The translations under genes and the position numbers were made by a program. A stretch of DNA of 52,586 nucleotides. It comes from an uncultured Bifidobacteriaceae bacterium. Lineage in GTDB: Bacteria; Bacteroidota; Bacteroidia; Cytophagales; UBA9547. Location: assembly GCA_964565665.1 (NCBI GenBank), contig CAZMFZ010000003.1, forward strand, positions 7,101 through 59,686, in the 5' to 3' direction. The notes under the pieces are model-generated. The model was not told the DNA's origin, did not search any database, and worked only from the letters and a program-made list of their open reading frames with translations. Within the stretch, counting starts at the first letter, position 1. Each line of letters begins with the position of its first letter. Positions 1,439 through 18,647 of the stretch are shown one piece after another.

Positions 1439-1840
1439 ATGGTATCAACTGCAAATAAGTTTAAGAAAGTACTAGTTATTGACGATGAGTTTATTGATAC
1501 ATACATTATCAAACACTTAATGCAAGCTCAAAACTTTGCTGATGAATATATTTTGATTGATTCATCACTTGATGCTTACGATTACATAAGTGAAGAAATG
1601 AACGGAGATACAAAATTTCCTGAAATAATTATTTTGGATTTGAATATGCCACTTTACAATGGCTTTGAATTGCTTGAAAAGATAGATGCACAAGTGAAAA
1701 TGCACAAAGTAAATACAAAGGTATATATATTATCATCTTCTGACTTTATAGAAGATATAACCAGAGCCAAATCGTTCCAATCAGTAGCAGGCTATATTGT
1801 AAAGCCACTTACAGAGGAAAAACTCAATGGGATTGGTTGA
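1439..1840 (+). CDS. Single-domain response regulator (receiver only)
   Basis: VLVIDD, phosphoacceptor in ILDLNMP..NGFE, SSS and KP motifs; no output domain. Confidence 0.92.
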   Translation: MVSTANKFKKVLVIDDEFIDTYIIKHLMQAQNFADEYILIDSSLDAYDYISEEMNGDTKFPEIIILDLNMPLYNGFELLEKIDAQVKMHKVNTKVYILSSSDFIEDITRAKSFQSVAGYIVKPLTEEKLNGIG

Positions 1841-2193: not shown

Positions 2194-5100
2194 ATGAGAT
2201 TATTATACACAAAACTACTATCCGTTTTCTTTTTTATGGGGGTTACATTTTTAGGGTTCGGGCAGTGTCCAGCCACTAATGCTGTTTCGATTAGCTCTTT
2301 ACCTGTATCCTGTTTCGGTGGTAATGATGGATTAGTTGTTTTTAACTTTAATCCTATTACAATTTCAGGTTCTCATAGATTTAGACTTTATCAATTGCCA
2401 AATACACCTGTATCATCGGCAGTAATTGCTACTTCTGGTCCAATAACTTTTACTGGAGGGATATCAAATGGCAACTATGAAGTTAGGTATTATAAAGTAG
2501 GAGGAATTGGATCTTGTGGTTCATTAGGGTCTCCTGTACCAATAGCTGGTACAAATATTAGTGTAGGTCAGCCAGCGGTGGTAGAAATTTCATTATTATA
2601 TGACAATGAATTATGCTTTGGAACTAATCAGGAAATGCAAGGTTCTGATCCTGTTCCGCCAAGAGGTCAGCCGTACAGTACACTTTGGAGCATTACTGGT
2701 CCCAGCCTAGCCGTACTTTCCCCCAATAATACAGCCGATTATGTAACAGTTAGTAATTTACAACCCGGGACATTTAATGCCACCTGGAGCGTTAGCGTTT
2801 CTGGATGTGGGGTTGCTTCAACTTCCACCGAACCATTTTATGTTAGAGAACTACCAGTCATTTCAAGTAGCCTTACAACCACCGTATGTAGCGGCTTTCC
2901 ATTTAATTATATCATAACTTCCACAACCGTAGGCTCTACTTTTCAATGGACTCGCCCCACAAACCCTAATATTAGCAATGCAGCTGTTACAGAATTTGAT
3001 GAAACTATTAATGAAACCTTAATTAATACAAGTGCTACGCCTCAATTAGTTCTTTATCAATTGCAAGCTACTGGCCCTGGAGCAACGGCTTGCCCCGGAA
3101 TTCCTTCTGTACTAACCGTAACGGTAAATCCAACCCCAACTGCCAATGCCACCCCATCTTCCGATACCAAATGCAGCGGACAGCCTGTAAGTTTTGCTCT
3201 TTCAAGCAATTTAGCTAATACTATCTACACATGGGTTACTTCCATTACTTCTGGCGTGGTTTCGGGCATAAATTCGGGCGGTGGAAGCACCATCACAGAT
3301 ACGCCTATCAATTCGGGCAATGCTTCTACTTCATATCTTTACATAGTAACCCCGCAAAATACACTCACAGGGTGTAGTGGTTTATCACCATTTACCATTC
3401 CTGTCACCATCAACGTCTTGCCTACTGTGGCAGGCACAAATGTCCCTACCGTTTGTGGGTTTGCCTCTACTTCTATCAATTTAGCTACCAATGGCACCAG
3501 CTTCGCCTGGAGCAATGGGCAATCTACCAATCCAGCCACATTAACACCTGTTGTCACTGGCTTGAATACTTTTACAGTTACCGTAAGTTCGGGTTTGTGT
3601 GGTGTAGCTACCACAGTTGGGGTGTTTTCTCAATCTACCGTAACAGTACAGGGTGTAAATGCTACAGTTTGTGGTCTAAACTCAGCTACAATAAGTTTGG
3701 TAACCAATGGAAGCAATATCAATTGGTTCAATGGAACATCAACCAATTCCATATCCGTAGTTCCAGTTTCCTTCGGAATCAATAATTACAATGCCACAGT
3801 TACTTCTGGTGTATGCAATGTCACCACAGTGGTGAGTGTATTGGCACAGCCTTTAATTACCGTTTCTAGTACCAATACTACAGTTTGTGGGTTTATTCCT
3901 ACCTCTCGATTATTAATCACAAATGGTACAGCATTTAATTGGAATACAGGTCAAACTACCAATCCTGCTACTTTAACACCAACTATTTTTGGTCTCAACA
4001 CCTTTACCGCCACCGTTTCTTCCGGATTGTGCAATGTGGTTACATCGGTGGGTATTGTTGCCATTGCCCCACTTTCTGTGGCAGGAACAAATGCTACTGT
4101 CTGCGGCCTTTCCCTAGCCAATATTAGCATTACAACCAATGGGGTAAATATCAATTGGTTTAACGGAGCGACTACAAGTACTATTTCAGTTACTCCTACT
4201 AGTTTAGGCAATACTAATTACCCGGTTACTATCAGCTCGAGCATTTGTCAAATCGTTACTACTGTGGGAGTAACAGCTGTTTCGCCCGTTACAGTTTCTG
4301 GAAATAATGCCACAGTTTGCGGTCTTATCCCCACCTCATTTACATTATCAACGAATGGCACTAGTTTCAGCTGGAGTACAGGTCAAACCGCCAATCCCGT
4401 AACATTAACCCCTGTTATATTTGGGTTGAATACTTTTATTGTTACTGTCAGTTCGGGCTTATGTAGCGTAGTTACTTCTGTAGGAATATTTGCTACATCA
4501 TCTATTACCATAGCGGGCAATGCAATTCCAACTATATGTGGTATTACTTCAACTTCTTTTACCTTAACCACCAACGGAACTTCTTTTCTTTGGAGTAATG
4601 GACAAACTGCAAACCCTGCGACATTGACCCCTGCCACATTCGGTTTGAATGCTTTTACAGCCACAGTGAGTTCTGGATTCTGCAGGGTTACGACTACATT
4701 GGGCATATTTGTGCAATCGCCAATTACCGTTCAAGGTGTAAATGCCACAGTGTGTGGATTAAACTCAGCCAATATTAGTATTCTAACCAATGGAAGTAGC
4801 ATCAATTGGTTCAATGGTGCAACTACGGGATCTATATCTATAATTCCTGCTTCGGTTGGAATAAACAATTACAATGCTACCGTTACTTCTGGCAGTTGTA
4901 GTGTTACAACTACGGTGAGTGTTTTGTCTCTTGCAGTAGTTACTGTTTCAAGTACCAATACTTCGGTTTGCGGGCTAAATCCGACTGGTGTTTTGTTGTC
5001 TACCAATGGCTCTACTTTCAATTGGAGTTCAGGGCAATCTACCAATCCTGCTACATTAACACCTTTATCATTCGGCTTAAATACCTTTACTGTAACTGTT

Positions 5101-8100
5101 TCTTCTGGGTTGTGTAATGCGGTAACCACTGTAGGCATAGTTGCAAATGCCCCTATCACAATTGCTGTTACGAACACTACAACAGTTTGTGGGTTAGTCT
5201 CTGCAAGTGTCACTTTAACTACCAATGGCAATAATTTCAATTGGAGCAATGGGCAAACTACCAATCCAGCCATATTAACGCCAAGTAGTGGAGGGTTAAA
5301 TAGTTTTACAGTTACAGTAAACTCAGGCCTTTGCAATGCTATTACTACCGTTGGCGTATTTTCTTTAAATCTAATAACAAACATTTCGGGTAATCCGGCT
5401 TCGCCCATTTGCAGTGGAAGTACTGTAAATGTAACTGCTAGTTCTATCCCATCTGGAGGTGTTTTTGATTGGGCTACCCAAGTAATTTCCGGCACTGCAA
5501 ATGGAAATAGCAATGTGTCTGCCTCAAATAGTATCAATCAGAGTTTGACCAGTACAGGATTGGGAATAGTGAGCTACACCGTGGTAGGCACACTCAACGG
5601 ATGTGCAGGAAGCCCAGCCATTTTCAATGTTACAGTAAACCCTGCTGTTTCACAACCCACTTTCATTTCAGGTAGTAACCCTATTTGCCAAGGCACTACA
5701 AATGTATATCAAACAGATTTGCCTGCTAGTTTGAATGCAAGCTCTATTACTTGGTCAGTATTTCCGGCATCAGCTGGAAGTCAAATATTAACCCAAAATG
5801 TGACTACTGTAAATTGGAATGCAGCATTTTCGGGCAATGTAACTTTGACAGCAACAGCTTTCGGATGTGGAGCTTCACAAAGTTCGTTCTCAACGGTGTT
5901 GGGAATTTCAGCAAACCCCACTTTCGTTTCGGAGCTTACCCAACAAAACAACTCATGTATAGCAGACAATGGTATCATTACAGCCACAATTACAAGTGTA
6001 CCAAATTCAATTAGGCTAAATAACACTATAAATCCAGCTTCATTTTTTGCTGGAATAGCAACGTTTTCAAATTTAGGGCCTGGTACATATATCATAGTAA
6101 TGCGCAATGCAGTTGGTTGTGCAACTTCATCAACGGGTTACAATATTATTGCTCCGGCCACCCCACTTGCACCAAATGCAGTATCAGCTCCAGCGGGCAA
6201 TTATTGCGAAGGAGCAACTGTTCCCACTTTAACAATTACTGTTCCTAGTGGATTAATTGGTTTATATGACTCTGGTGTATTAGTCACTACCACTTCATCT
6301 ATTCAATCTTTAAATTTACCTATTACGGCTGGTTCGTATAATTACAGTGCCAATGTGACTGTAAATGGATGTGTAAGCCCATCAACATTCATCATTTACA
6401 GTATTAATTTTTCCCCAAGCATTACAGGAATCGCAGGTTCAAACCCAACATCTTGTGGTTCGAGTGATGGAAGCCTAACCGTAACGGGCTCAGCAAGCCT
6501 TTATACATTGGGATCGGTTTCAAATGCAACAGGTATTTTTACCAGTCTTGCTCCCATAACACATAATGTAATCGCCTCAACTGGTAATTGTAGCGTAACT
6601 AGCTCGATTACGCTATCTGCCCCCGGGCAAACTTCTCCTCCAGTTCTATCGGGCGGTAATACTTATTGTGCAGGGCAGCCTATTTCGCTTTTAACTGTTA
6701 CCAGCACAATTAGTGGTACGTTTGGATTGTACAACGCTTCCAATACAGTAGTCGAAACCAAAATAGGCAGCAGTGCGGTTTTCAATACTACTGCCTCGGG
6801 AACTTATTATGCCAACATCACTGTGGCGGGTTGTGCCAGTGCTCAATCCAATACCGAAAACATTATAATCAATGCCATTCCCATCATTGCAATTTCTGGA
6901 AATAATGCCGCTTGTAATGGCAATTTGGTAACTGTGACTGCCAATGCGGGTTTTGGCAGTATTTATATTTGGTCTGGTGCACAAACTGGCAACACCGCTT
7001 TTTTTAATAATTCAGGTCTCAAAACAGTATTAGCCACCGTTTCTGGTTGTAGCTCCAGCCTTAGTTTTGTAACTACCATCAATTCAAATCCGATAGTAAC
7101 TATTTCGGCAAGCCAAACCAGTGTTTGTTCAAACGCAAATGTTACGCTGACTGGAAACGGAGCAAATAACTTCACTTGGCTTCCATCTTTGATATCTGCA
7201 CCATCTATTGTGGTACCTGTTGTGGGCAATACCATTATTAGCGTTATAGGAACAGATTTGAATGGTTGTGTAGGCAATGCTATCGTGAATCTATCCGTCA
7301 CTTCAGGTATTGTTGCTGTCGATTCACCTTTGGGAAATACTTCAAAATGTAGCGGAAGTGGCACATTCGGTTATGCGCTACCCAATACCAAAACTTTTTA
7401 TAACGCCACCACTTTCAATTGGTTTTTGATTCCTGCCGCATCGGGCACAATTACCGTATCTACTTCGCCCAACGAACATGTGGCCTCGGTAGCTTGGAAT
7501 GCAAGTTTTGCAGGTGTGGCAATAATTTCTGTAGTGGGTTTCGATGCTTGCGGCAACACTTCGGGCAATTTTACAAACGTCACTATCAATTCATCACCCA
7601 CTATTTCATCAATATCAACGATTGACCCTAGTTCTTGTAGTGTCAGCGATGGAGCTATTACCATTACTGGCACAGCGGCCAGTGGCTCAGTTACTTATGT
7701 AAATTTAACTGCGAATACTACCGTAGTTTCAGGTATATTTTCAAGCTTGAGCGCCAGTCCAATATCGAGCTACAACCTCCGATTGGTTGATGTGGTAAAT
7801 GGCTGTTTCACAGATGCTACCGCAAGTCTCAATCCTGCTGGTCAGCCTGCTGCCCCTTCTATCAGTGGCGGAAATACCTATTGCACTGGGCAAACTGTAC
7901 AGCCAATTTTTGCTACTTCTGCAACAATTGGGGGAATTAGCATTTATTTATCCCCTAATATTTTTATTGCATCTACACTAGGAAATAGCCTTTCAGTGTT
8001 ACCATCAGTATCAGGCAATTACTTTGCTCGTTTTTCAGATGGCAGTTGCGTAAGTGTAAATTCTGCTGCCGAAGCGGTAACCTTCAATAATCTTTTTATA

Positions 8101-11100
8101 ACGGCAACCACACCTAATCCTGTAAATGTGTGTGAAGGAAGTGCGGTAGCCTTGGCAATAATAGATGCAGGTGCTACTTATGCTTGGTTTGGTGTTGGAC
8201 TTGATGTAAATTTTGGAGGCAGTGTAAATGCTACACCAACTTTCGCAGGTACAAATTATTATGTAGTAACTGCATTAGGGTCGGGTAGTTGTACTGCATC
8301 TTTCACATTTACTGTAAATGGGCTTGCAAAACCTACCACCCAACTCATAGCCACCAACCAAACCGTGTGTGGAGATAATATTAACCTGGCTTTGAATAAC
8401 GTGGGTGGAACTTCGCTCACGTATTTTGATGGCTTTGTAAATAATACCGTTGCATTTGCGGGCAATGGTTTCAATGTTCCGCTAACGCTTGGCGACAATA
8501 TTTTCAGTTTAATAAGTGTTTCAGGGGCAAGCTGTTTTAATACAACTGCATCTGGCAGCGTTACTATTTTCCGAAGAGCAGATACCGATCCGTTGTGTAC
8601 TTGTACCGGAAGGGGCGAATTAATTGGCGGTAGCGGTTCGGTTTGCGAAGGAGGTTCATCTACCTTTAATTTGGTGGTTTCGGTTACGGGGTCTTCTCCC
8701 TTATCGGTAGAAATACTCCAAAATGGCGATGTAAACAATAGATTGACTTTCACTGGCTTAAATGCGGGTGTAAATGCCAACTTGGCTGTATCGCCCAATG
8801 TCACCACCGATTATACTATTTACCAAGTAAACTCTGCTACTTGCCAAGGGGCTGGCAGTGGTTCGATACGAATCAGTGTTACGCCAGTACCTATTTTATC
8901 CGTTACCAGTCCTGTAATAGTAAATTGTACCACCACTTCGGTCGATTTGTCCAATTACTTTGTAGATTTGAATACTACCATTTCTGGAGGAATCACTACT
9001 TATTGGGACGATGCCAATTACACCATTCCCATTTCAAATATAGTGACGGCAAGTAAAGTCTATTATATTAGAAAAGTAGCCAGCGGATTGTCAACCTGTT
9101 CTGGCGAAGCTGCTATTTCAGTGGTATTCCGAAGCAAACCAGCAGGGATAGTGACGGGGGGGGGCTCAGTTTGTGCTGGGCAATCGACAAATATCAGTGC
9201 AAGCTTTACTGGCGGTACTGCTCCATATTCATTTGTATATGGCAGTGCAACTTCGACTTCAGGCATTCAGTCGAGTAGTGGGCTATTTTCCACCTCTGTA
9301 AATGCAGGAAACGATACGTACACAGTATTGGGAATTTCAGATGCGAGTGGATGTGCCATATCTGTTTCTGGTATCGCAATTGTGGCATTGAGTCCTTCAA
9401 GCCTTTGTGGTGGCAATGTAGTTTGTATCACTTCCCCTTCTGCACCAATTCTATTTTCACAGGTTGCTCAATGCGGAGAAATAAAGTTGAATTGGACTCC
9501 TCAATTGGTTGATTATTATAGCTTTACGTTGCAATTTATTTCGGGAAATGTATCAAGCACAGGCACAACTACCGGATTTAATACCAGTTTTTCAGGGCTT
9601 TCTGCCGGCAATTACAATGTGATAGTAAGTGCTTCAAATACCTGTGGCACAAGTTCGGAGGCCACCTTGTTGGGTGTTAATACCAGTGATGCACTCACTG
9701 CGGTGGTAACAGGAGGCGGGCAGGTTTGTGCCAACCAAAAAGCCTTGTTAAGCATCTCTCTAACAGGCACAGCACCATTCTCAGTTACTCTTAGCAATGG
9801 TACTTCTTATATCAACCAAGCCAATAATTTCACCATTACCGTGGGTGGGTTAACTGAAAATTATACCATTGCAACCATGGCAGATGCAACGGGTTGTACC
9901 AACTTAATTACCAGTACTGGAACTGATGTTGTTGGGGTTTTTCCTCAGAATGCCAGCATAGCAGTTGCAAGTAAATTCACCTCATCGTGCGAATCAGGTA
10001 GTTTTGTATTTTCTGCTTCTGGTGTAAATGGAGGTACTAGTCCTAGTTTCAATTGGTATGTAAATAATCAATTGGTATCACTCACAGGCACGAGTTATTC
10101 AGTTGTAGGAATAGATACAATAGGTGACAGTAGCTTTTTGACCATTTCAGGCTTGGCAAATAACGATGCCATTACCGCTCAATTGACACCTGACCCTTTA
10201 GTAGCAAGTTGTGTTTTGAATGCCTCAAGTATTTTTTCATCTCCAGTAAATGTTAAAATAGAAAATATTGACCTTTCAAGTGCAATCTCATATATTCCAA
10301 CCCAGTGCTTGAATAGCAGCGATGGCGTTTTATATATCAATCTACCCAATAAATATGCAGGGAGAACTTTTAGCTATAGCGTAAATACAATAGTAGGCGT
10401 GGTATATGATCCGCTAATTACTGTTGGAGGTCTTTTGGCAAATAAACTCAACATCACTATTACGGATGCTGACAATCCCCAATGTACACTCGACACTATT
10501 ACCAATGGCACAGGCACAGTCAATGCCACAATCATTCCAGCCGTAACTAATGCTGATTGCAACGCAAACAATGGTAGCATCGGAATGTATTTTAGAAGTG
10601 AATTTCCAAATTACAATGTTACCATTATCGGCTTGAACACCACCACAGGTATTGATAATGTCATTTCAGTTGTTTCAAACATAGTTTCCGACAGTGCAAG
10701 CGGCTACACTTTTATGTTCGACAAGTTAGGAATTGGGCTTTATCAAATCAACCTAGAATATAATAATTGCTTTGCCTCATTGCCAGTCTTATCAATAGGT
10801 GGTGGCAGCACACCCATCGTTGATTTGGGCGAAGATATCAAAATTTGTCGTGGCGATTCAATTATCCTCACCACCTCAGGAATTGCGGGAGGTTTATATT
10901 CATGGTTCAAAAACGATTCTTTAATTAGCACAGGATCTTTTAATTATTTACCTATTCGCCCGAGCAAAAGTGCCATATATTCGGTGAGTGTTCCTGGTAC
11001 AAATGGTTGCTACGCTACTGATTTTGTATCGGTAAATGTGGCCGATATATCCCTGAAATTGGTAACCACCGCACTCGAATCAGATACCAAGGTTAATTTG

Positions 11101-11865
11101 GCTTGGACTTATATTAATAAAAATGCACTTCTCGATACCAGCTTCACAATTGAAAGCAGATTAGTTAACGGCAGTCAATTTTATCCATGGACTGTCTCAG
11201 GCTTTGCTATTTTGAAAGATAGTTTATTCACACACACCAATTTATTGACCAAACAAGCTGCACAACAATTCAGAGTTGTAGGCGTGAATAATGCAGTTTG
11301 TGCATCTTTCCCTCATGACTTGGTTTATTTGGCAGGCACCAACAGCGAAGCCGATAGCAAAGTAAGCTTGAATTGGACCTCTTATAAAGGCTGGGCGAAA
11401 GGGGTAGATCATTATGAAGTATGGCGTAAATTGGACGATGAACCAGGTTTTTCATTCCTAAAAACTGCCGCTAACGACACCACCATCGAATTATTCAATA
11501 TAGTAGATGGGTTTATTCACGAATATAGAATACTTGCCGTAAGCAAAGAGCCAGTGCAAGACAGCATCAAATCGTGGTCGAATATTGTTCGCCTTGAGTT
11601 TAATAGGCAAATTGAACCCTACAACGCTTTCAGCCCCAATGGTGACGGCAAAAATGATGTGTTTGAAGTGAAAAACATCCAATCTTGGACTAGCAATGAA
11701 ATCTTTATTTTCAATCGTTGGGGTGGAAAGGTGTTTTATGCCAAACCATACAGAAACGATTGGACTGGAGACGGAATGCCTGACGGCACCTATTTCTACA
11801 TCATTAACTTGAATGATAAAAACAATACAAAACCGAGCAAAGGAAGCATATTGTTGCAGCGATGA
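2194..11865 (+). CDS. Giant T9SS-secreted surface protein/adhesin (3223 aa) with SprB/PKD-like/Ig-like repeats, FN3-like domains and a type B CTD
   Basis: Signal peptide; SCFGGNDG SprB-like start; many Cys-paired beta repeats; C-terminal NAFSPNGDGKND..IFNRWG..DWTG..PDGTYFY..KGSILLQR (CHU_C); PorP/SprF gene directly downstream. Confidence 0.9.
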   Translation: MRLLYTKLLSVFFFMGVTFLGFGQCPATNAVSISSLPVSCFGGNDGLVVFNFNPITISGSHRFRLYQLPNTPVSSAVIATSGPITFTGGISNGNYEVRYYKVGGIGSCGSLGSPVPIAGTNISVGQPAVVEISLLYDNELCFGTNQEMQGSDPVPPRGQPYSTLWSITGPSLAVLSPNNTADYVTVSNLQPGTFNATWSVSVSGCGVASTSTEPFYVRELPVISSSLTTTVCSGFPFNYIITSTTVGSTFQWTRPTNPNISNAAVTEFDETINETLINTSATPQLVLYQLQATGPGATACPGIPSVLTVTVNPTPTANATPSSDTKCSGQPVSFALSSNLANTIYTWVTSITSGVVSGINSGGGSTITDTPINSGNASTSYLYIVTPQNTLTGCSGLSPFTIPVTINVLPTVAGTNVPTVCGFASTSINLATNGTSFAWSNGQSTNPATLTPVVTGLNTFTVTVSSGLCGVATTVGVFSQSTVTVQGVNATVCGLNSATISLVTNGSNINWFNGTSTNSISVVPVSFGINNYNATVTSGVCNVTTVVSVLAQPLITVSSTNTTVCGFIPTSRLLITNGTAFNWNTGQTTNPATLTPTIFGLNTFTATVSSGLCNVVTSVGIVAIAPLSVAGTNATVCGLSLANISITTNGVNINWFNGATTSTISVTPTSLGNTNYPVTISSSICQIVTTVGVTAVSPVTVSGNNATVCGLIPTSFTLSTNGTSFSWSTGQTANPVTLTPVIFGLNTFIVTVSSGLCSVVTSVGIFATSSITIAGNAIPTICGITSTSFTLTTNGTSFLWSNGQTANPATLTPATFGLNAFTATVSSGFCRVTTTLGIFVQSPITVQGVNATVCGLNSANISILTNGSSINWFNGATTGSISIIPASVGINNYNATVTSGSCSVTTTVSVLSLAVVTVSSTNTSVCGLNPTGVLLSTNGSTFNWSSGQSTNPATLTPLSFGLNTFTVTVSSGLCNAVTTVGIVANAPITIAVTNTTTVCGLVSASVTLTTNGNNFNWSNGQTTNPAILTPSSGGLNSFTVTVNSGLCNAITTVGVFSLNLITNISGNPASPICSGSTVNVTASSIPSGGVFDWATQVISGTANGNSNVSASNSINQSLTSTGLGIVSYTVVGTLNGCAGSPAIFNVTVNPAVSQPTFISGSNPICQGTTNVYQTDLPASLNASSITWSVFPASAGSQILTQNVTTVNWNAAFSGNVTLTATAFGCGASQSSFSTVLGISANPTFVSELTQQNNSCIADNGIITATITSVPNSIRLNNTINPASFFAGIATFSNLGPGTYIIVMRNAVGCATSSTGYNIIAPATPLAPNAVSAPAGNYCEGATVPTLTITVPSGLIGLYDSGVLVTTTSSIQSLNLPITAGSYNYSANVTVNGCVSPSTFIIYSINFSPSITGIAGSNPTSCGSSDGSLTVTGSASLYTLGSVSNATGIFTSLAPITHNVIASTGNCSVTSSITLSAPGQTSPPVLSGGNTYCAGQPISLLTVTSTISGTFGLYNASNTVVETKIGSSAVFNTTASGTYYANITVAGCASAQSNTENIIINAIPIIAISGNNAACNGNLVTVTANAGFGSIYIWSGAQTGNTAFFNNSGLKTVLATVSGCSSSLSFVTTINSNPIVTISASQTSVCSNANVTLTGNGANNFTWLPSLISAPSIVVPVVGNTIISVIGTDLNGCVGNAIVNLSVTSGIVAVDSPLGNTSKCSGSGTFGYALPNTKTFYNATTFNWFLIPAASGTITVSTSPNEHVASVAWNASFAGVAIISVVGFDACGNTSGNFTNVTINSSPTISSISTIDPSSCSVSDGAITITGTAASGSVTYVNLTANTTVVSGIFSSLSASPISSYNLRLVDVVNGCFTDATASLNPAGQPAAPSISGGNTYCTGQTVQPIFATSATIGGISIYLSPNIFIASTLGNSLSVLPSVSGNYFARFSDGSCVSVNSAAEAVTFNNLFITATTPNPVNVCEGSAVALAIIDAGATYAWFGVGLDVNFGGSVNATPTFAGTNYYVVTALGSGSCTASFTFTVNGLAKPTTQLIATNQTVCGDNINLALNNVGGTSLTYFDGFVNNTVAFAGNGFNVPLTLGDNIFSLISVSGASCFNTTASGSVTIFRRADTDPLCTCTGRGELIGGSGSVCEGGSSTFNLVVSVTGSSPLSVEILQNGDVNNRLTFTGLNAGVNANLAVSPNVTTDYTIYQVNSATCQGAGSGSIRISVTPVPILSVTSPVIVNCTTTSVDLSNYFVDLNTTISGGITTYWDDANYTIPISNIVTASKVYYIRKVASGLSTCSGEAAISVVFRSKPAGIVTGGGSVCAGQSTNISASFTGGTAPYSFVYGSATSTSGIQSSSGLFSTSVNAGNDTYTVLGISDASGCAISVSGIAIVALSPSSLCGGNVVCITSPSAPILFSQVAQCGEIKLNWTPQLVDYYSFTLQFISGNVSSTGTTTGFNTSFSGLSAGNYNVIVSASNTCGTSSEATLLGVNTSDALTAVVTGGGQVCANQKALLSISLTGTAPFSVTLSNGTSYINQANNFTITVGGLTENYTIATMADATGCTNLITSTGTDVVGVFPQNASIAVASKFTSSCESGSFVFSASGVNGGTSPSFNWYVNNQLVSLTGTSYSVVGIDTIGDSSFLTISGLANNDAITAQLTPDPLVASCVLNASSIFSSPVNVKIENIDLSSAISYIPTQCLNSSDGVLYINLPNKYAGRTFSYSVNTIVGVVYDPLITVGGLLANKLNITITDADNPQCTLDTITNGTGTVNATIIPAVTNADCNANNGSIGMYFRSEFPNYNVTIIGLNTTTGIDNVISVVSNIVSDSASGYTFMFDKLGIGLYQINLEYNNCFASLPVLSIGGGSTPIVDLGEDIKICRGDSIILTTSGIAGGLYSWFKNDSLISTGSFNYLPIRPSKSAIYSVSVPGTNGCYATDFVSVNVADISLKLVTTALESDTKVNLAWTYINKNALLDTSFTIESRLVNGSQFYPWTVSGFAILKDSLFTHTNLLTKQAAQQFRVVGVNNAVCASFPHDLVYLAGTNSEADSKVSLNWTSYKGWAKGVDHYEVWRKLDDEPGFSFLKTAANDTTIELFNIVDGFIHEYRILAVSKEPVQDSIKSWSNIVRLEFNRQIEPYNAFSPNGDGKNDVFEVKNIQSWTSNEIFIFNRWGGKVFYAKPYRNDWTGDGMPDGTYFYIINLNDKNNTKPSKGSILLQR
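3421..5367 (+). repeat. Nine tandem ~216-nt (~72-aa) intragenic repeats
   Basis: Recurring T(V/I)CG..TNG..W..G..T..P..G.N.F/Y.VTVSSG.C units in two subtypes, order A-B-A-B-A-A-B-A-A. Confidence 0.9.
9156..9164 (+). repeat. G9 homopolymer inside the adhesin CDS
   Basis: ACG GGG GGG GGC (Thr-Gly-Gly-Gly), nine consecutive G. Confidence 0.9.
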
Positions 11866-11995: not shown

Positions 11996-13012
11996 ATGAA
12001 AATATTTAACATATTGAATTTTATTTTTAAATGGATTATTGAAGTAAAGCAAACTGCATTACGCATTACGCATTACGCGATATTTCTTTGCCTCTCTTTT
12101 GGCGCTTTTACTCAACAAGATGCACATTTCACACAATACATGTTCAACAACCAGTATTTTAATCCGGCATTTGCAGGTACTGCCGATTACATTACAGGAA
12201 CTCTATTTTACCGCAAGCAATGGGTAGGTATGCCCGGTTCGCCAGTCACTCAAAACCTGACAGGCATTGTACCATTCAAAAGAAACCATTTTGCATTGGC
12301 TTTCAACTTAGTTAATGACCAGATTGGGGAAGTGAGAGCGGGTGCTTTAAACATCAATATTGCTTTCGCCTATTACCTTAATATAAAAAATGGGAGGCTT
12401 TCATTTGGCTTGGGTGGTGGAGTACAGCAATATAGTGTAGATGGCGGAACAATACGAACAGTCGACAATACCGATTTGACATTCGCAAATAAGTCGGTAA
12501 ATCAATTGGCTCCTGATTTTAATTTTGGTGTGTTTTATAAAACCAATCGCTATTATGTGGGCATTTCAAGTACACATTTGAATAATCCAAACAGGCGGTT
12601 AACAGCCTATAAAGCTGAAAACCCAGCCGTAACTGCTAGGCATTATTACCTTACAGCAGGATACACTTTTGAAGTAGATGAAAAATTCAAGGTCACTCCT
12701 TCAATCATCAATCGTTTTTCAGAGTCTAAAATTTTTGGCAGCAATTTCTCTACAGATATTTCGGTTAAAACTGATTACATAGACATGGTCTGGCTGGGTG
12801 CTTCCTACCGAACTACTAATGCTTTGGCATTTTTTACGGGTGTGAATGTGGGGAAAATAAATGCAGATGTATTCAAAGAAAATATCAAAATAGGCTACGC
12901 TTACGATATTTCTGTTGGCCCACAACCTGCTTTCAATAATGGTTCGCACGAAATTTTTATTTCCTACGAATACGCCCCCAAAGTAAAGCGTATGATGCCT
13001 AAATTTAAGTAG
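11996..13012 (+). CDS. PorP/SprF family T9SS outer-membrane barrel
   Basis: QQDAHFTQYMFN..YFNPAFAG, YRKQWVGMPGSP, IGYAYD, GSHEIFISY family motifs; follows a type B CTD gene. Confidence 0.93.
   Translation: MKIFNILNFIFKWIIEVKQTALRITHYAIFLCLSFGAFTQQDAHFTQYMFNNQYFNPAFAGTADYITGTLFYRKQWVGMPGSPVTQNLTGIVPFKRNHFALAFNLVNDQIGEVRAGALNINIAFAYYLNIKNGRLSFGLGGGVQQYSVDGGTIRTVDNTDLTFANKSVNQLAPDFNFGVFYKTNRYYVGISSTHLNNPNRRLTAYKAENPAVTARHYYLTAGYTFEVDEKFKVTPSIINRFSESKIFGSNFSTDISVKTDYIDMVWLGASYRTTNALAFFTGVNVGKINADVFKENIKIGYAYDISVGPQPAFNNGSHEIFISYEYAPKVKRMMPKFK
12056..12078 (+). repeat. Heptamer tandem repeat (GCATTAC)x3 in the signal-peptide region of the PorP gene
   Basis: gcattac gcattac gcattac gc. Confidence 0.9.
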
Positions 13013-13085: not shown

Positions 13086-14069
13086 ATGTTTTTCCAATTT
13101 TCTGGAGTTTCAAAACCATTAAAAATTGTTTTTTTAGACGCAGGCACATTGTTTGGTATATCTAACTTATTGTCTATTAATTCTTTAGGTGAATATATTC
13201 AATATCACCATACCCTTGAAAATGAAGTTGGTGATCGATTAAAAGATGCTGATGTGGCTATAACCAATAAAGTAGTAATCGACAAATTGGTTATGCAAAA
13301 CTGCCCCAACCTCAAATTGATATGTGTAGCTGCCACAGGAATGAATAATATTGATTTGGAGTACGCAGCCATTAAAAAGATAGAAGTCAAAAATGTTCCT
13401 GGTTATTCTACCAAAAGTGTAGCACAAGTTACTTGGGGAATGATTCTTCATTTATTTAATCATGTAAACTATTATGACCATTACGTAAAATCGGGTGCAT
13501 ACATTACCAATGAATTTTTTACGCATGTTGGCGTTTGTTTTAATGAGTTGTCAGGAAAAACATTAGGTGTAATAGGGTTGAGTACTATCGGGAAGCAAGT
13601 AGCTAAAATAGCAGAGGCATTTGGGATGAAAGTGGTTTACACCTCTATATCTAATAGTGTACACGATAGTGTTTATGAGAGATTGAGCCTAGATAATTTG
13701 CTAGCGAAATCAGACGTTGTGGTCATTCACACGCCACTTTCACCACAGACGAAGCACCTTATAAATTTCGAGAAATTGAAGCTTATGAAATCAAAGGCTT
13801 TCATTGTTAATACTAGTAGAGGCGGAATAGTGGTAGAGTCTGATTTGGTGCGTGCATTGAATGAAAACATTATTGCAGGTGCAGGAGTAGATGTTTTTGA
13901 GGGTGAACCCATTGCTGAAAATAGCCCATATTTTATGGTTGAAAACAAATCCAAAATGGTGCTTTCACCACATATAGCATGGGCATCTGTTGAGTCAAGA
14001 ACTGTACTAGTAGAGAAAATAAAAGAAAATATTCTGCAGTTCAACTCAAAAGCGGACAGCTATTTTTAA
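13086..14069 (+). CDS. D-2-hydroxyacid dehydrogenase (glycerate dehydrogenase/HprA-like)
   Basis: KIVFLD, ITNKV, ATGMNNID, Rossmann GVIGLSTIG, catalytic NTSRG / DVFEGEP / SPHIAW. Confidence 0.92.
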   Translation: MFFQFSGVSKPLKIVFLDAGTLFGISNLLSINSLGEYIQYHHTLENEVGDRLKDADVAITNKVVIDKLVMQNCPNLKLICVAATGMNNIDLEYAAIKKIEVKNVPGYSTKSVAQVTWGMILHLFNHVNYYDHYVKSGAYITNEFFTHVGVCFNELSGKTLGVIGLSTIGKQVAKIAEAFGMKVVYTSISNSVHDSVYERLSLDNLLAKSDVVVIHTPLSPQTKHLINFEKLKLMKSKAFIVNTSRGGIVVESDLVRALNENIIAGAGVDVFEGEPIAENSPYFMVENKSKMVLSPHIAWASVESRTVLVEKIKENILQFNSKADSYF

Positions 14070-14144
14070 CTAGTTATTATACTGTATCTATGTTGAAAAA
14101 TAGAGAAAATTAAGATTAGATTATAAAGGAGGAATTGAAATTAA

Positions 14145-15926
14145 TTATTCTAAAATCAGATAGCTCCATCCTTCTGTAGCGTCTTTAGGTCTTTTCTTGG
14201 TCTGAATTTTTTCAAGCACTTTTCTTTTAAAATCATCACATGTCTGACGCCTCAGCAATATCATCTCAGCTATTTTTTGTGCAGAAATATCCTTTCTTTC
14301 TGTTACTAAGAAAAGAATATAAAACGCTTTTACTATAGAGAATTTGAGTTTGTAAAATATAGTAAAGGTAGTGGCCGATTCCTCATATCCGCATTTGGTA
14401 CAGCGCTGCGAATAAGGCATTTTGCCATTGCTTGCTATTTTGTTTTCACATTTTTTACATTCATATCCTTTGTTCCATTTCAACGCTACCAAATATTGAT
14501 AACATGTGTCTTCAGAGGGAAATATCTTCTTGAATTCATCAATTGAAATAGATTTTCGCATAATTTTATCTTTCTCAAGCACCGTTACATCACCTTCCAG
14601 CTTCTGATTATAGGCCAATAATAAGTCATTCATTTGCTGAATTTTTACATTTGCCAAGGCTAGTTCGTAGGTTCGATTGATTACACTAAGTTCCAACATC
14701 TGGTTCATTTCCTGAGATAGTTTTTGTTTTTCATCCAATTCGACAATAAGCAAATTTTGCGAATGTTCTTTTTCCTTTTTCAAAGTGCGATACCTATCTG
14801 AAATGGCAATGGTGAATAAGATAATTTCAAGCACTGTCATATTGGAAAATGAAAAAATAAAATCTCCATCTTGAATAAATGAATAAATGGTTTCTTCTCT
14901 TAGTATTTGTAATACGCTGTGAATAATCATTCCCAAATAAACCAAACATAGACTCAAAATGAAGAAACGAGCCGCTTTGAATCCCTGTCGATAGCGTGCA
15001 ATACCAGCAATTAAACTACTGAGTATTATCATATTGTCGGTGAGAGAATGCAATAAAACAGGGTAGCTCTGCCAAATTCCCACCGCCAAAGCGATTAATT
15101 TTAATAACACCAGAAATAGAATCAACTTGTCGATGATGGGCGTAAACTGGTTGGTTTTTAAAAATCCTCGGGTATAAATTAATAAGAAGATAGTAATGAA
15201 ACTGAAGGGAATGGAATAGAAATAGAGTTCGTGTGGGAAATTATAATTAAATAAACTGTGCATATTTATTTTGGTAATAAATAGATATATGCCAAACGAT
15301 AACACGTAGAAAAAATAGTATAAATAAAATCGCTCTTTAATGCCTAAGAACATCACAAAAGTGTAAACTAGGGTAAGGAAAATTATGCCTAATATCAATC
15401 CATAGTAAAACATGTCGTTCATTACGGCATTTGCATACTCAGTATATAATATCATAAAAAACCCTATACCCGAATAATAATTGGGACTTTTGATTTTGAT
15501 GATTATAGGTAGAGATTGGTATTCAGAAGTCAGTACATAATCCCAATTGAGTGAATTTATTGGCTTAAGAGCTAAAAGATGTTGTTGCTTCCATACATAC
15601 ACTTCACATAGATTGTAATCATTCTGCAGATAAATGGCAACAGGTGTGCTGTATACTTTGTTAAATTGTACTTTCAGCCAATAAGTGCCTGATTTTTGGC
15701 TTACTCGCTCTTCTGGCTTAAGATTTTTAAATTCAGAATCGTATTTATGGCTTAATATTTCAGCTAAGGAAAGGCTATTTGTAGTATCGTGAAATACCAA
15801 TTCTTGTCTTTCAGGTGGGAGAACTATTTTTTTATATTCCCCAATGATAATATTTTTAGCTGTGCAAGAAAGCAAAGTAGCTAACAATATGATATAAATA
15901 GAAAAATCAGTTTTGGTAAAATACAT
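14145..15926 (-). CDS. 7TM-DISM membrane receptor with coiled coil and C-terminal IS1595-like Zn-ribbon/HTH domain
   Basis: Extracellular DISM-like region (YWLKVQF); seven hydrophobic segments (YYGLILG..YLYYFFYV..ARFFILS..LEIILFTIAISDRY); coiled coil; then EFKKIFPSEDTCYQYLVALKW.GYECKKC..RCTKC..ESATTFTIF..ISAQKIAE. Confidence 0.82.
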   Translation of the reverse strand: MYFTKTDFSIYIILLATLLSCTAKNIIIGEYKKIVLPPERQELVFHDTTNSLSLAEILSHKYDSEFKNLKPEERVSQKSGTYWLKVQFNKVYSTPVAIYLQNDYNLCEVYVWKQQHLLALKPINSLNWDYVLTSEYQSLPIIIKIKSPNYYSGIGFFMILYTEYANAVMNDMFYYGLILGIIFLTLVYTFVMFLGIKERFYLYYFFYVLSFGIYLFITKINMHSLFNYNFPHELYFYSIPFSFITIFLLIYTRGFLKTNQFTPIIDKLILFLVLLKLIALAVGIWQSYPVLLHSLTDNMIILSSLIAGIARYRQGFKAARFFILSLCLVYLGMIIHSVLQILREETIYSFIQDGDFIFSFSNMTVLEIILFTIAISDRYRTLKKEKEHSQNLLIVELDEKQKLSQEMNQMLELSVINRTYELALANVKIQQMNDLLLAYNQKLEGDVTVLEKDKIMRKSISIDEFKKIFPSEDTCYQYLVALKWNKGYECKKCENKIASNGKMPYSQRCTKCGYEESATTFTIFYKLKFSIVKAFYILFLVTERKDISAQKIAEMILLRRQTCDDFKRKVLEKIQTKKRPKDATEGWSYLILE

Positions 15927-16447
15927 GATTGATTGTAGTAGTTAATAGCAATATACAGAAGATACCATATTAAACATTACAGTAATCGAAAAAGGATATG
16001 TCAAATAATAAATTTTTATTATACCATGTTTTGGCTTACTTAGGCTTTAGTTTTGAAGGAAAATTAAAATATAGTAGGATATTAAGGCTGAAAACGAAAA
16101 ACTATAACACTACAAAGATTTTCAAAATCAATAGTATTAGCGAATGAAAGTAATTGCCGTTTTAGATACATATTTGATTATATTGTAAAGTGAAATATAG
16201 AAAGACGATATATTAATTAGTGCTTGAATATTACGAATATGAGTTGATAAAATTGGTTTCATAAAATTACAAATGTGTAGGTGATTGTGTATTTGTAAAC
16301 TTTATCCGACTGGTTTAATTGTGCACATTTGCCAAATATTTTCTTTTTTACATTTTGAATAATTTAAAAATGGAATTGCAACATAGCTTTATTGAAGAAG
16401 TGTTGAAATAGTTTTGAATTCAAAAAAAAACAGACCGAGAACAAAGT

Positions 16448-17794
16448 ATGATTTCTAAATACCTTATTAATAATGTAACAATTGTAAATGAAGGCCAATG
16501 TATTACAAAAGACATTCTTTTTTACGACAACTTAATTCAGAAAATTGGCTACATTGAAGTTGAACCCGACTTTAACGTAATTGACGGATCTGGCAAACAT
16601 TTATTTCCTGGAATAATAGATGGGCAAGTGCATTTTCGAGATCCTGGACTAACGCACAAAGGCGACCTTTATACTGAAACTAAAGCATCAATAGCTGGTG
16701 GCATCACCTCTTTTATAGATATGCCCAACACAATCCCTAATGTATTGACAGTAGAAATTCTTGCCGACAAATACGAACTGGCTTCAAAAAAATCATTGGC
16801 CAACTATTCCTTCTTTTTGGGCGTAAATGGCGACAATATTGATGAAATTATTGCAACAGATACTTCAAAAATGATTGGCGTTTCTGATGATGGATTGTAT
16901 TTCACAAAAAAAGGTAATTTGTTAGCAGACAATCCTGCAACGATGGAAAAACTATTGGCCAATTGCAAATCTGTTATCGCCATTCATTCTGAAAAAGAAC
17001 AGATTGTAGAGGAAAATGAAAATAATTATAGAGAAAAATATAGCGAGAATGTGCCTATTGAGTGTCACCCTTTAATTCGAAGCGAAACGGCTTGCTTTGA
17101 AGCAACCAAACAGGCTTTAGAACTTGCTCACAAACACAAAGCAAGACTGCATATTTTGCACCTTACCACAGAAGCGGAGACTCATTTATTTAGAAATGAT
17201 ATTACGTTAAAAGAGAAAAATATTACCACAGAAGTTTCTGTTCATCATCTTTGGTTTTCCGATAAAGATTATTCTCGTTTAGGCAATTTAATAAAATGGA
17301 ATCCTGCGATCAAAACAGAAAAAGATAAGAAAGGACTATTTAAAGCATTATTGGACGATAGAATCGATATAGTAACTACCGACCACGCTCCACATACATT
17401 GGAGGAGAAACAAAAGCCTTATTTTCAATCCATGTCAGGTGCGCCTATGGTGCAGCATTCGTTAAATTGTATGTTGGAATTTTATAAGCAGGGGCTTATT
17501 TCTTTGGAGAAGATAGTGGAGAAAATGTGTCACAATCCTGCCATTCTTTACCGAATTGAGAAAAGGGGATATATCAGAGAAAGATATTATGCAGATTTAA
17601 CCTTGGTTGATTTGAAGTCAAATTGGACTGTAGCAAAAGATAATATATTATATAAATGTGGGTGGTCTCCATTGGAAGGAACAAATTTTCAAACCAAAGT
17701 AATACAGACATTTGTAAATGGTAATTTGATTTACGATAACGGACATTTCAATGAAACAGTTAAAGGAATGGCTTTAACTATCTTAGCAGAATAG
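16448..17794 (+). CDS. pyrC: Dihydroorotase (amidohydrolase family), variant active site
   Basis: PGIIDGQVHFRDPGLTHKG, DMPNT.P, IHSE, LHILHLTT, KWNPAIK, TDHAPH, KCGWSPLEG. Confidence 0.85.
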   Translation: MISKYLINNVTIVNEGQCITKDILFYDNLIQKIGYIEVEPDFNVIDGSGKHLFPGIIDGQVHFRDPGLTHKGDLYTETKASIAGGITSFIDMPNTIPNVLTVEILADKYELASKKSLANYSFFLGVNGDNIDEIIATDTSKMIGVSDDGLYFTKKGNLLADNPATMEKLLANCKSVIAIHSEKEQIVEENENNYREKYSENVPIECHPLIRSETACFEATKQALELAHKHKARLHILHLTTEAETHLFRNDITLKEKNITTEVSVHHLWFSDKDYSRLGNLIKWNPAIKTEKDKKGLFKALLDDRIDIVTTDHAPHTLEEKQKPYFQSMSGAPMVQHSLNCMLEFYKQGLISLEKIVEKMCHNPAILYRIEKRGYIRERYYADLTLVDLKSNWTVAKDNILYKCGWSPLEGTNFQTKVIQTFVNGNLIYDNGHFNETVKGMALTILAE

Positions 17795-17810: not shown

Positions 17811-18647
17811 ATGTTCAAGGGCAGAAAATTAGTAATTGCAACCAAACACGAAAAAGAAAAAGTGATTTCCCCGCTTTTAGAAAAAGCTTTCGGAGTGTCA
17901 TGCTTTGTAAATGAAAACTTTGATACAGATGTTTTAGGCACTTTTACAGGTGAAATTGAACGAGAACTCGACCCCATTGCAACAGTCAGACAAAAATGCT
18001 TGAAGTCAATGGAAGTATCGAATTGCGATTTGGGTATAGCAAGTGAAGGCTCTTTTGGTTCTCATCCATCCATGTTTTTTGTAAACGCTGATGATGAGTT
18101 TTTGATTTTTATTGATAAGAAGAATAAAATAGAAATTATTGCAAGAGAATTAAGCACGCAAACAAACTTCAATGGCAAAGAGATTAAAACTGAAAATGAA
18201 CTTCTAGAATTCGCAGATTTAGTAAATTTTCCATCACATGGCCTCATCCTTCGTAAATCTAAAGAAGAAAACGAACACATTATAAAGGGGATTGTTGATC
18301 TAAACTCATTAAAAGAAGCATACAAAAAACTGTTTGAAATGTTTAATTCTGTGTATGCAGAAACCGATATGCGGGCAATGTACAATCCCTCTCGCATGAA
18401 GGTTATTGAAGCAGCGACTCAAAAATTAGTAGATAAAATAAATTCAACATGTCCTGAATGCAACATGCCAGGCTTTGCTATTACAGAAGCAAGAAAAGGA
18501 CTTGAATGTAGCTTGTGCGGCTCTGAGACCAATTCAATACTAAGCCATATTTACGTTTGCCAGCATTGTGAATACAAAAAGGAAGAAATGTTCCCGCATA
18601 GTAAAATAACCGAAGACCCTATGCATTGTGCCTATTGCAACCCTTAA
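17811..18647 (+). CDS. DUF6671-like protein with four C-terminal CxxC pairs
   Basis: IATKHEKE, DTDVLGTFTGEIER, IASEGSFG.HP, ETDMRAMYNPSRM, CPEC/CSLC/CQHC/CAYCNP. Confidence 0.78.
   Translation: MFKGRKLVIATKHEKEKVISPLLEKAFGVSCFVNENFDTDVLGTFTGEIERELDPIATVRQKCLKSMEVSNCDLGIASEGSFGSHPSMFFVNADDEFLIFIDKKNKIEIIARELSTQTNFNGKEIKTENELLEFADLVNFPSHGLILRKSKEENEHIIKGIVDLNSLKEAYKKLFEMFNSVYAETDMRAMYNPSRMKVIEAATQKLVDKINSTCPECNMPGFAITEARKGLECSLCGSETNSILSHIYVCQHCEYKKEEMFPHSKITEDPMHCAYCNP

Follow-up and report, generated by a model that had tools for sequence, protein, structure and literature searches.

The gene at 14145..15926 (minus strand) of the 52,586-nucleotide (nt) window studied here raises the question of why a bacterial membrane receptor should end in a piece of a transposase. 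The window, meaning the whole stretch of DNA analysed, comes from an uncultured bacterium placed in the order Cytophagales (GenBank assembly GCA_964565665.1, contig CAZMFZ010000003.1, positions 7,101 to 59,686 of the forward strand). Open reading frame (ORF) translation, Pfam and a full-length AlphaFold model describe the product, 593 amino acids (aa) before the stop codon, as a membrane receptor with a tail derived from the insertion sequence (IS) family IS1595. The protein is likely to be a membrane-tethered one-component transcription regulator that uses a domesticated transposase DNA-binding domain, as an earlier note on this DNA had proposed. It belongs to a large family of one bacterial order whose members probably switch genes on or off directly.

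The identity of the tail comes from comparison with real transposases. The IS1595 catalytic domain (PF12762) was sought in 41 related genomes and intact transposase genes were taken from the matches. Four of these transposases carry both the Zn-ribbon family PF12760 (30-40 bits) and PF12762 (70-97 bits), with the DDE core starting at residues 131-150. In BLASTP the last 149 aa of the receptor match three bona fide transposases with 37% identity over 123 aa (E 5e-23), 40% over 107 aa (E 2e-25) and 36% over 120 aa (E 1e-23). The alignments cover transposase residues ~8-135 with one single-residue gap each; therefore, the homology reaches beyond the 46-residue Pfam ribbon and takes in the CxxC...CxxC ribbon with the two helices before it and the three after it. 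L039, the nearest of the transposases sampled, also has the TCW motif that the receptor tail shows in its third helix. When 5 receptor tails were aligned with 7 transposases by MAFFT, the receptor end GWSYLILE fell on the transposase strand G-x-V-x-V-D-E. This strand is the start of the DDE core and contains the first catalytic Asp, so the receptor is cut exactly where the catalytic domain begins. Judged by these alignments, the 135-aa tail is the complete N-terminal Zn-ribbon/helix-turn-helix (HTH) region of an IS1595 transposase without its catalytic core. The Zn-ribbon/HTH motif string quoted in the earlier note is present in the translation as written.

A model of the tail by itself, built from 149 aligned sequences, has a pLDDT of 91.9 and a pTM of 0.85. 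It places helices at residues 462-468 and 472-484 and ribbon strands around C490/C493 and C509/C512, followed by helices 531-543, 549-556 and 560-576 and a short helix 587-590. The two leading helices and the ribbon (residues 462-520) are encoded at 14367..14543 on the minus strand, as are all parts of the receptor, and C490, C493, C509 and C512 would be the zinc ligands. These four cysteines and C475 are invariant in the 149 sequences; at C563 and W587 conservation is 90% or more. The HTH-like three-helix bundle (residues 531-576; 14199..14336), identified from the models and the alignment to transposases, ends in a presumed recognition helix at 560-576 with the motif LRRQTC..FK.KV. The basic tail KKRPK...GWSYLILE (residues 577-593; 14148..14198), delimited by the MAFFT alignment and containing W587, completes the protein 17 residues past the third helix of the bundle, which agrees with the earlier observation that the protein stops just after the HTH.

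The remainder of the protein has the layout of a 7TMR-DISM receptor. A hydrophobic N-terminal helix (15861..15911; residues 6-22 in the model, hydropathy peak at 10-28) is either a signal peptide or a membrane anchor. The extracellular 7TMR-DISMED2 beta-sandwich sensor domain (residues 40-160; 15447..15809) is recognised by PF07696 at residues 44-107 with 24.2 bits against a cut-off of 22; the match is partial and covers model positions 6-69 of 136. The seven-transmembrane module 7TMR-DISM_7TM (residues 161-378; 14793..15446) is complete: PF07695 matches residues 172-378 with E 1e-22 and 81.5 bits (cut-off 29), and the match spans model positions 2-205 of 205. By hydropathy, six transmembrane segments exceed the threshold and one is weaker. 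The full-length model (pLDDT 89.2, pTM 0.71), built from 101 aligned homologs, gives helix 6-22, the beta-sandwich at 40-160, seven membrane helices from 161 to about 378 and then a long helix. The extracellular domain, seven membrane helices and tail of about 135 aa that had been read from the letters are borne out by Pfam and the model. NCBIfam had no family matching the receptor.

The ectodomain model resembles the periplasmic sensor domain of RetS in two structures, 3jyb_A (Foldseek E 5.7e-4, target TM-score 0.68, rmsd 3.7, 140 columns) and 2xbz_A (E 5.4e-4). CBM32 and F5/8-type C carbohydrate-binding modules match more weakly, at E of about 0.05. The ligand is probably a sugar or another small molecule.

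The last transmembrane helix (TM7), which begins at residue 360, is unbroken to residue 455 in the model and gives the protein a cytoplasmic signalling helix of about 80 residues past the membrane (residues 379-455; 14562..14792). Residues 443-456 form a hinge of low confidence between this helix and the compact C-terminal domain. Seven positions of the helix are at least 90% conserved in 101 sequences (V415, R418, T419, N433, L436, N440 and L443). The motif LE..V..RT.EL, located directly after TM7, also occurs in 7TMR-DISM histidine kinases found as homologs (visible in P0003 and P0004), which suggests that a pre-existing signalling helix once ended in a kinase and that the transposase head took its place. 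The window protein itself contains no HisKA/HATPase, receiver, AraC HTH or any other phosphorelay domain in Pfam at E<=1.

The family was measured by several searches. A word-indexed protein search with residues 440-593 only yielded 121 candidates, among them 11 proteins of 501-637 aa. Of these, a 501-aa fragment from an independent metagenome record is identical, and the other ten have tails that are 39-65% identical. Searched exhaustively by phmmer with the 149-aa tail, a set of 1.84 billion representatives gave 2457 matches at E<=1e-3, 671 at E<=1e-10 and 95 at E<=1e-30. Individual records cover the best 150 of the 2457, and the lower-ranked matches surely include transposases. After re-scoring, none of the 161 retrieved proteins begins with the domain and continues for more than 120 residues beyond it; that layout is seen only in 8 sequences, which are the transposase ORFs taken from genomes. 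The nearest ESM Atlas clusters consist of Bacteroidota proteins of ~150 aa named 'transposase family protein' (269, 67 and 50 members, 88-90% of which carry PF12760). These may be Zn-ribbon/HTH proteins in their own right or pieces of receptors.

Pfam was run on 40 of the tail homologs, and PF12760 was found in 35 of them at E<=1e-3. All 20 homologs of 978-1097 aa have Reg_prop repeats and Y_Y_Y, and P0154, a protein of 479 aa, combines PAS domains with the tail. The other 19 comprise 11 with 7TMR-DISM_7TM, five Y_Y_Y fragments and three proteins of 280-334 aa with the ribbon only or no family. The same tail is therefore used on three types of sensor (7TM, Reg_prop/Y_Y_Y and PAS). This recurrence, seen at the level of domain composition, fits the output role that the earlier note had assigned to the tail.

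The family is largely confined to the order. Of 201 same-order genomes, 65 have a tail match at E<=1e-10, and a single genome can carry as many as 13 copies; the similar fusions in other Cytophagales mentioned in the earlier note are indeed common. Most of the same-order frames are 590-740 aa or ~1000-1068 aa long. An even sample of the phylum gave a match at E<=1e-12 in 11 of 301 genomes. Frames of at least 600 aa occur in five of these, all of the same order; in the six genomes of other orders the matching frames are only 80-317 aa long and several contain internal stops, so that they have the appearance of transposases or transposase remnants.

Trees of the domain separate the receptors from the transposases. 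In a quick IQ-TREE analysis of 135 domain sequences and 123 columns, 127 receptor tails and 8 transposases fall on the two sides of one split (SH-aLRT 97), the 7TM and propeller classes of receptor are interleaved (nine label changes), and one transposase has a very long branch. The tree was rebuilt with the long-branch transposase removed, four transposases from other orders added and a random subset of the receptors. It again has a single split (UFBoot 97, SH-aLRT 97) between 59 receptors, of which 46 are of 7TM length, including that of the window, and 13 of propeller length, and 11 transposases. The split was present in 97% of 200 bootstrap trees, a bootstrap that the tool reported as not fully settled. 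The tails thus have a single origin in the trees built, and the receptors form a separate, long-branched clade relative to the transposases. These topologies are most simply read as one domestication and later shuffling of the domain, although this is not proven.

The fusion could also be a functionless accident, a 7TMR-DISM kinase gene having been cut short by a recent insertion of IS1595 or by chimeric assembly. The Pfam ribbon match of the window protein alone is below threshold, one paralog in the genome is split into frames of 210 and 396 aa, and NCBI names the full-length homolog P0010 'transposase' (another homolog is a 'hypothetical protein'). These points would fit an accident. Nevertheless, the same architecture recurs in the 65 same-order genomes and in hundreds of representative clusters, the 501-aa fragment was recovered independently, and the five cysteines are invariant. 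Selection points the same way. The ratio of nonsynonymous to synonymous substitution (dN/dS, NG86 method) was calculated for ortholog pairs among 40 homolog loci, the window copy being in none of the pairs. In the five pairs with dS below about 1, the tail has ratios of 0.018, 0.074, 0.075, 0.113 and 0.112, compared with 0.033, 0.126, 0.197, 0.199 and 0.196 for the sensor and 7TM part. The dN of the tail is below that of the sensor part in 18 of 18 pairs; ratios were not drawn from the other 13 pairs, which were saturated or had a dS that could not be computed. The receptor tails are under purifying selection.

Traces of an insertion were sought directly. Three apparently intact IS1595 elements of ~1 kb in related genomes show what such ends look like: L016:1378-2387 has perfect inverted repeats of 33 nt, L039:491-1459 has perfect inverted repeats of 16 nt, and L019:1350-2426 has inverted repeats of 25 nt at 80%. 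Their transposases carry PF12760 and PF12762. No comparable terminal inverted repeats were found at 13800-16600, where the best pairs are at most 25 nt long and 72-93% complementary in AT-rich DNA. PF12762 (DDE_Tnp_IS1595) has zero matches at E<=0.01 in the genome assembly (97.8% complete, 220 contigs) and none in the receptor protein at E<=1. The absence of IS ends and of a DDE remnant noted earlier is therefore upheld, and the fusion is neither unique to this assembly nor accompanied by IS remnants. Since the tail is conserved, falls in one clade, is under purifying selection and lies in a genome without inverted repeats at this locus or an IS1595 DDE gene anywhere, it is best described as domesticated and not as a recent insertion. 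An accident is extremely improbable.

The genome has four receptor copies, and all four matches to Zn_ribbon_IS1595 above the cut-off in the whole genome are 7TM receptor frames. The copies are diverged paralogs, 36-43% identical in the tail, and are not repeats of a mobile type. Two of the paralogs have the same three Pfam domains as the window receptor, with ribbon scores of 37.8 and 35.8 bits. The fourth copy (L004:125-1944 = L082:6039-7858, contig C8) is split near the start of the 7TM module into overlapping frames of 210 and 396 aa, which may reflect a frameshift, a pseudogene or a sequencing error.

Truncated transposases act as inhibitors in other IS families, and the head of the receptor is 36-40% identical to the heads of active-looking IS1595 copies of the same order. 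The receptor might accordingly be a signal-controlled regulator of IS1595 transposition, with a catalysis-free head that binds IS ends and blocks or directs the transposase. The copy numbers make this very unlikely, as four receptors in this genome stand against no DDE_Tnp_IS1595 match, with the caveat that IS copies are often left unassembled and the assembly is in 220 contigs. Within the bacterial family, relatives of the full-length receptor at E<=1e-30 are present in 14 of 21 other genomes and the DDE domain in 8 of 21, with no evident coupling between the two. The separate, long-branched clade of the receptors is also against such a role, as is the 521-bp region upstream of the gene (15927..16447), which is unique in the genome and holds no repeated IS-end-like element. 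A miniature inverted-repeat transposable element or IS end had been considered for this region and was rejected, the only match of the sequence being to itself.

Gene context is informative for the relatives of the window receptor. The sample consists of 40 loci from 26 genomes, picked by hand from same-order matches with long contigs favoured; genes were called by script, and three neighbours per side were clustered and two per side scanned by Pfam. At 12 of the 40 loci the sensor gene is followed downstream, within three genes and in the same orientation, by a gene for a SusC-like TonB-dependent receptor and then a SusD-like gene. Pfam recognises the SusC of each of the 12 loci and the SusD of 9; the remaining 3 SusD assignments depend only on BLAST clustering with the Pfam-supported ones. 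Four families and six genera are represented, so the 12 loci amount to far fewer than 12 independent events. In five of these genomes there are 27, 30, 4, 10 and 9 SusD matches for 1, 4, 1, 1 and 1 receptor copies, respectively. Ten further loci have, at most two genes away, GH5, GH9, GH3, CE2, CBM96, CBM9 or PA14/NPCBM proteins, or a sugar kinase and permease. Glycan-related neighbours are therefore present at 22 of the 40 loci, and together with the RetS-like ectodomain they make the earlier suggestion of carbohydrate sensing plausible. An association of the family with polysaccharide loci therefore holds in certain lineages and cannot be generalised.

The window copy has a different setting. 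On one side is the divergent amidohydrolase gene (16448-17794, plus strand) at 521 bp, with which the receptor shares the upstream intergenic region, presumably its promoter region, followed by genes for a DUF6671 protein, biotin synthase and other housekeeping functions. The DUF6671 protein (17811-18647, plus strand; E 4e-104) is encoded directly after the amidohydrolase and carries paired CxxC motifs close to its C-terminal end. On the other side a spacer of 75 bp (14070..14144), the distance given in the earlier note, separates the receptor from the convergent D-2-hydroxyacid dehydrogenase gene (13086-14069, plus strand), which is followed by a PorP/SprF gene and the gene of a 3223-aa CHU_C protein. 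A scan of 13950-16500 for sigma-70 promoters and terminators gave counts equal to those of shuffled sequence, with a consensus that is ill-suited to the host phylum, and found no terminator-like site in the 75-bp spacer.

Regulation of the nearby adhesin loci, which the earlier note had considered, is not supported. The gene of the 3223-aa CHU_C adhesin starts about 12 kb from the receptor on the opposite strand with two genes between. Neighbours that are cargo of the type IX secretion system (T9SS; Por_Secre_tail or CHU_C) occur within two genes at 7 of the 40 homolog loci, and a link to T9SS adhesins was rejected, this count being judged, without a control, to be close to the background of these genomes. 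The window encodes two giant proteins of this kind, at 2194-11865 and 33630-49625 (both plus strand; 3223 and 5331 aa), with CHU_C type IX secretion signal ends and Ig_7 domains in a scan covering only the last 799 aa of each. It also has three PorP/SprF genes (11996-13012, 31200-32303 and 32386-33453), and each giant gene is next to genes of this type. Just upstream of the first giant CHU_C gene is a stand-alone receiver protein of 133 aa (1439-1840, plus strand; PF00072, E 4e-12).

Two of the three other paralogs in the genome adjoin T9SS-secreted NPCBM or PA14 proteins and the third lies among housekeeping genes. The split copy has PA14/fn3 T9SS cargo genes on one side and, on the other, genes for a LacI regulator and 3-keto-disaccharide hydrolases. 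Directly downstream of the paralog on contig C67 is a gene (L002:2021-3052 = L083:6390-7421) for a homing endonuclease-like protein of 343 aa with HNH_3, NUMOD4 and a resolvase-type HTH_7.

A candidate operator was looked for among the 40 loci. The T-run motif TTTTT[AC]A[AT]TG[AT]T[AT] has 15 matches, eight of which are 38-145 nt past the receptor stop codon on the same strand. These eight fall in seven loci, with two in L076; the loci listed are L068, L069 and L076 (receptor-SusC spacers), L055, L060, L062, L071 and L073. The pattern was derived from the same receptor-SusC spacers, and only the match in L073 is independent. The motif may be terminator or promoter sequence and nothing is claimed for it as an operator.

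The features above suggest how the protein might work. The DISMED2 beta-sandwich would bind a ligand, plausibly a carbohydrate, outside the cell, and the 7TM bundle would pass the signal on by moving the signalling helix that continues TM7. This helix, of the kind that feeds kinases, would carry the IS1595 DNA-binding head in place of the kinase. In a receptor dimer, the movement of the helices would re-orient two Zn-ribbon/HTH heads on a two-part operator, so that transcription of the target would be switched at the membrane with no phosphorelay. A homodimer prediction for two copies of residues 385-593 scored 0.02 against a mark of 0.42 and speaks neither for nor against dimerisation.

The tail may have an output that does not involve DNA. 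It could contact protein or RNA, for example by holding a sigma factor or some other regulator at the membrane, or be released by proteolysis and act elsewhere. Zn-ribbons can also mediate protein contacts, the hinge at 443-456 could be a cleavage site, and the structural matches to the three-helix part are weak (Z up to 3.8). However, the tail is homologous over its full length to the part of IS1595 transposases that precedes the catalytic core, and in DDE transposases this is where the transposon ends are bound. Conservation is among the highest in the presumed recognition helix and the basic tail, and the position directly upstream of SusC/SusD at 12 of 40 loci is the usual place of direct regulators. 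An output other than DNA binding is therefore rather unlikely, and a DNA-binding, membrane-tethered regulator is the reading retained here.

Several observations weigh against this reading. Zn_ribbon_IS1595 (PF12760) matches the window protein alone at residues 470-514 with E 3e-4 and 21.1 bits, which is less than the curated cut-off of 25.4; in the six-frame genome scan the receptor scores 24.9 bits, or 27.3 with the neighbouring stretches. Of the profiles that the earlier note had expected, the two 7TMR-DISM domains are thus above their cut-offs and the DDE domain is absent, while the ribbon is below its cut-off. The tail model has no Foldseek match in the PDB at E<=1e-3, and no PDB sequence matches the tail below E 0.099. 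The best VIA-align result, Z 3.8, is for the three-helix part only, and the tool deems this level compatible with a common arrangement. Matches of Z 3.2-3.8 are to complexes of HTH and homeodomain proteins with DNA and to the HTH or DNA-binding domains of Lrp, TnsB and Tc3, over model residues ~80-135. These weak matches agree with an HTH but prove nothing and are too weak to name a fold family.

The context and the distribution also count against it. No glycan-uptake or other obvious target gene lies beside the window copy, and 18 of the 40 homolog loci likewise have no glycan-related neighbours. The loci were hand-picked and many are kin, and the chance of adjacency to SusD, about 0.3-2% per genome, is rough arithmetic from the SusD counts without a random-locus control. 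Both trees are unrooted and have 123 columns and few transposases (8 and 11). The window copy has no close ortholog in the sampled genomes; its best relative outside its own genome is 37% identical, and the best paralog within the genome, at 39%, is closer. A genome of the same genus (G001, 100% complete) has no tail match at E<=1e-5, in comparison with four copies in the genome of the window, so the gene is dispensable at the genus scale. Gain or loss of the receptor is rapid at the genus level. The window copy thus has no strict ortholog in the genomes searched, and the family is best viewed as an accessory gene set with fast turnover.

A wider proposal would be that the IS1595 head was domesticated once, in one order, as a plug-in output module. 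It would thereby have turned kinase-type glycan sensors (7TMR-DISM and propeller/Y_Y_Y) into membrane-tethered transcription factors that need no phosphorelay, with operators descended from IS1595 terminal repeats. Taken in its entirety this is distinctly unlikely. If the operators did descend from terminal repeats, parts of the regulons would owe their wiring to transposon ends, as in the transposon-derived networks of eukaryotes.

No description of a receptor-IS1595 fusion, or of a host role for the IS1595 head in bacteria, was found in the literature; the founding 7TMR-DISM paper of 2003 may already list it. This agrees with the earlier statement that no characterisation of such fusions is known. 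In the portion available, a study of signalling helices (2006, PMC1592074) sought HTH domains of the AraC, Fis, MerR and LysR types and mentions no transposase or Zn-ribbon. PF12760 serves as a transposase marker in the methods portion of a 2026 study (PMC13639185). Use of this marker, and the name 'transposase' given by NCBI, imply that receptor genes inflate the transposase counts of these genomes. If the tail binds DNA, it would add a new type to the output domains of bacterial membrane receptors and show clearly, for a prokaryote, that the DNA-binding domain of a transposase can become a host regulator. It would also provide a phosphorelay-free route from sensor types that feed kinases elsewhere, and the relatives just upstream of SusC/SusD would become candidate regulators of polysaccharide utilisation loci in the order.

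Compared with known systems, the receptor is closest in its front part to the 7TMR-DISM receptors with kinase output, such as RetS and LadS of Pseudomonas aeruginosa; one homolog of the window receptor is labelled LadS by its source. It has in common with them the DISMED2 ectodomain (RetS structures 3jyb and 2xbz), the 7TMR-DISM_7TM module and the signalling-helix motif after TM7, and kinase-type members are 24-26% identical to it over 43-72% of the protein. The output differs, as theirs is HisKA/HATPase (and REC) and here it is a Zn-ribbon/HTH head. That head resembles the first ~125-135 residues of IS1595-family (ISXO2-like) transposases in its two helices, CxxC...CxxC ribbon and three-helix region. 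Unlike these transposases, the receptor has no DDE core or terminal repeats, carries the head at the C-terminus of a membrane protein, falls in a separate clade and is not a mobile repeat.

The hybrid two-component systems (HTCS) of Bacteroidota control polysaccharide utilisation loci and combine a kinase, a receiver and an AraC-type HTH in one chain. Sister members of the receptor family have the same Reg_prop and Y_Y_Y periplasmic sensor followed by one transmembrane helix, and a subset of the family is likewise placed directly upstream of SusC/SusD. The HTCS signal through the kinase, receiver and AraC domains, whereas here the sensor would act on the transposase-derived head via the helix alone. 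ToxR, CadC, ChiS and SusR are membrane-bound one-component transcription regulators. The window receptor has, as they do, a sensor, a membrane span and a presumed DNA-binding domain in one polypeptide, so DNA would have to be bound at the membrane. It differs from them in the fold and origin of the DNA-binding part, its C-terminal position and the seven transmembrane helices. Transcription factor families derived from transposases exist in eukaryotes, and they too retain the transposase DNA-binding domain after the loss of catalysis and put it to use for the host; the present case is bacterial, derives from IS1595 and is fused to membrane sensors as their signalling output. The receptor would combine three known kinds of protein, namely 7TMR-DISM receptors, one-component membrane regulators and domesticated transposase domains.

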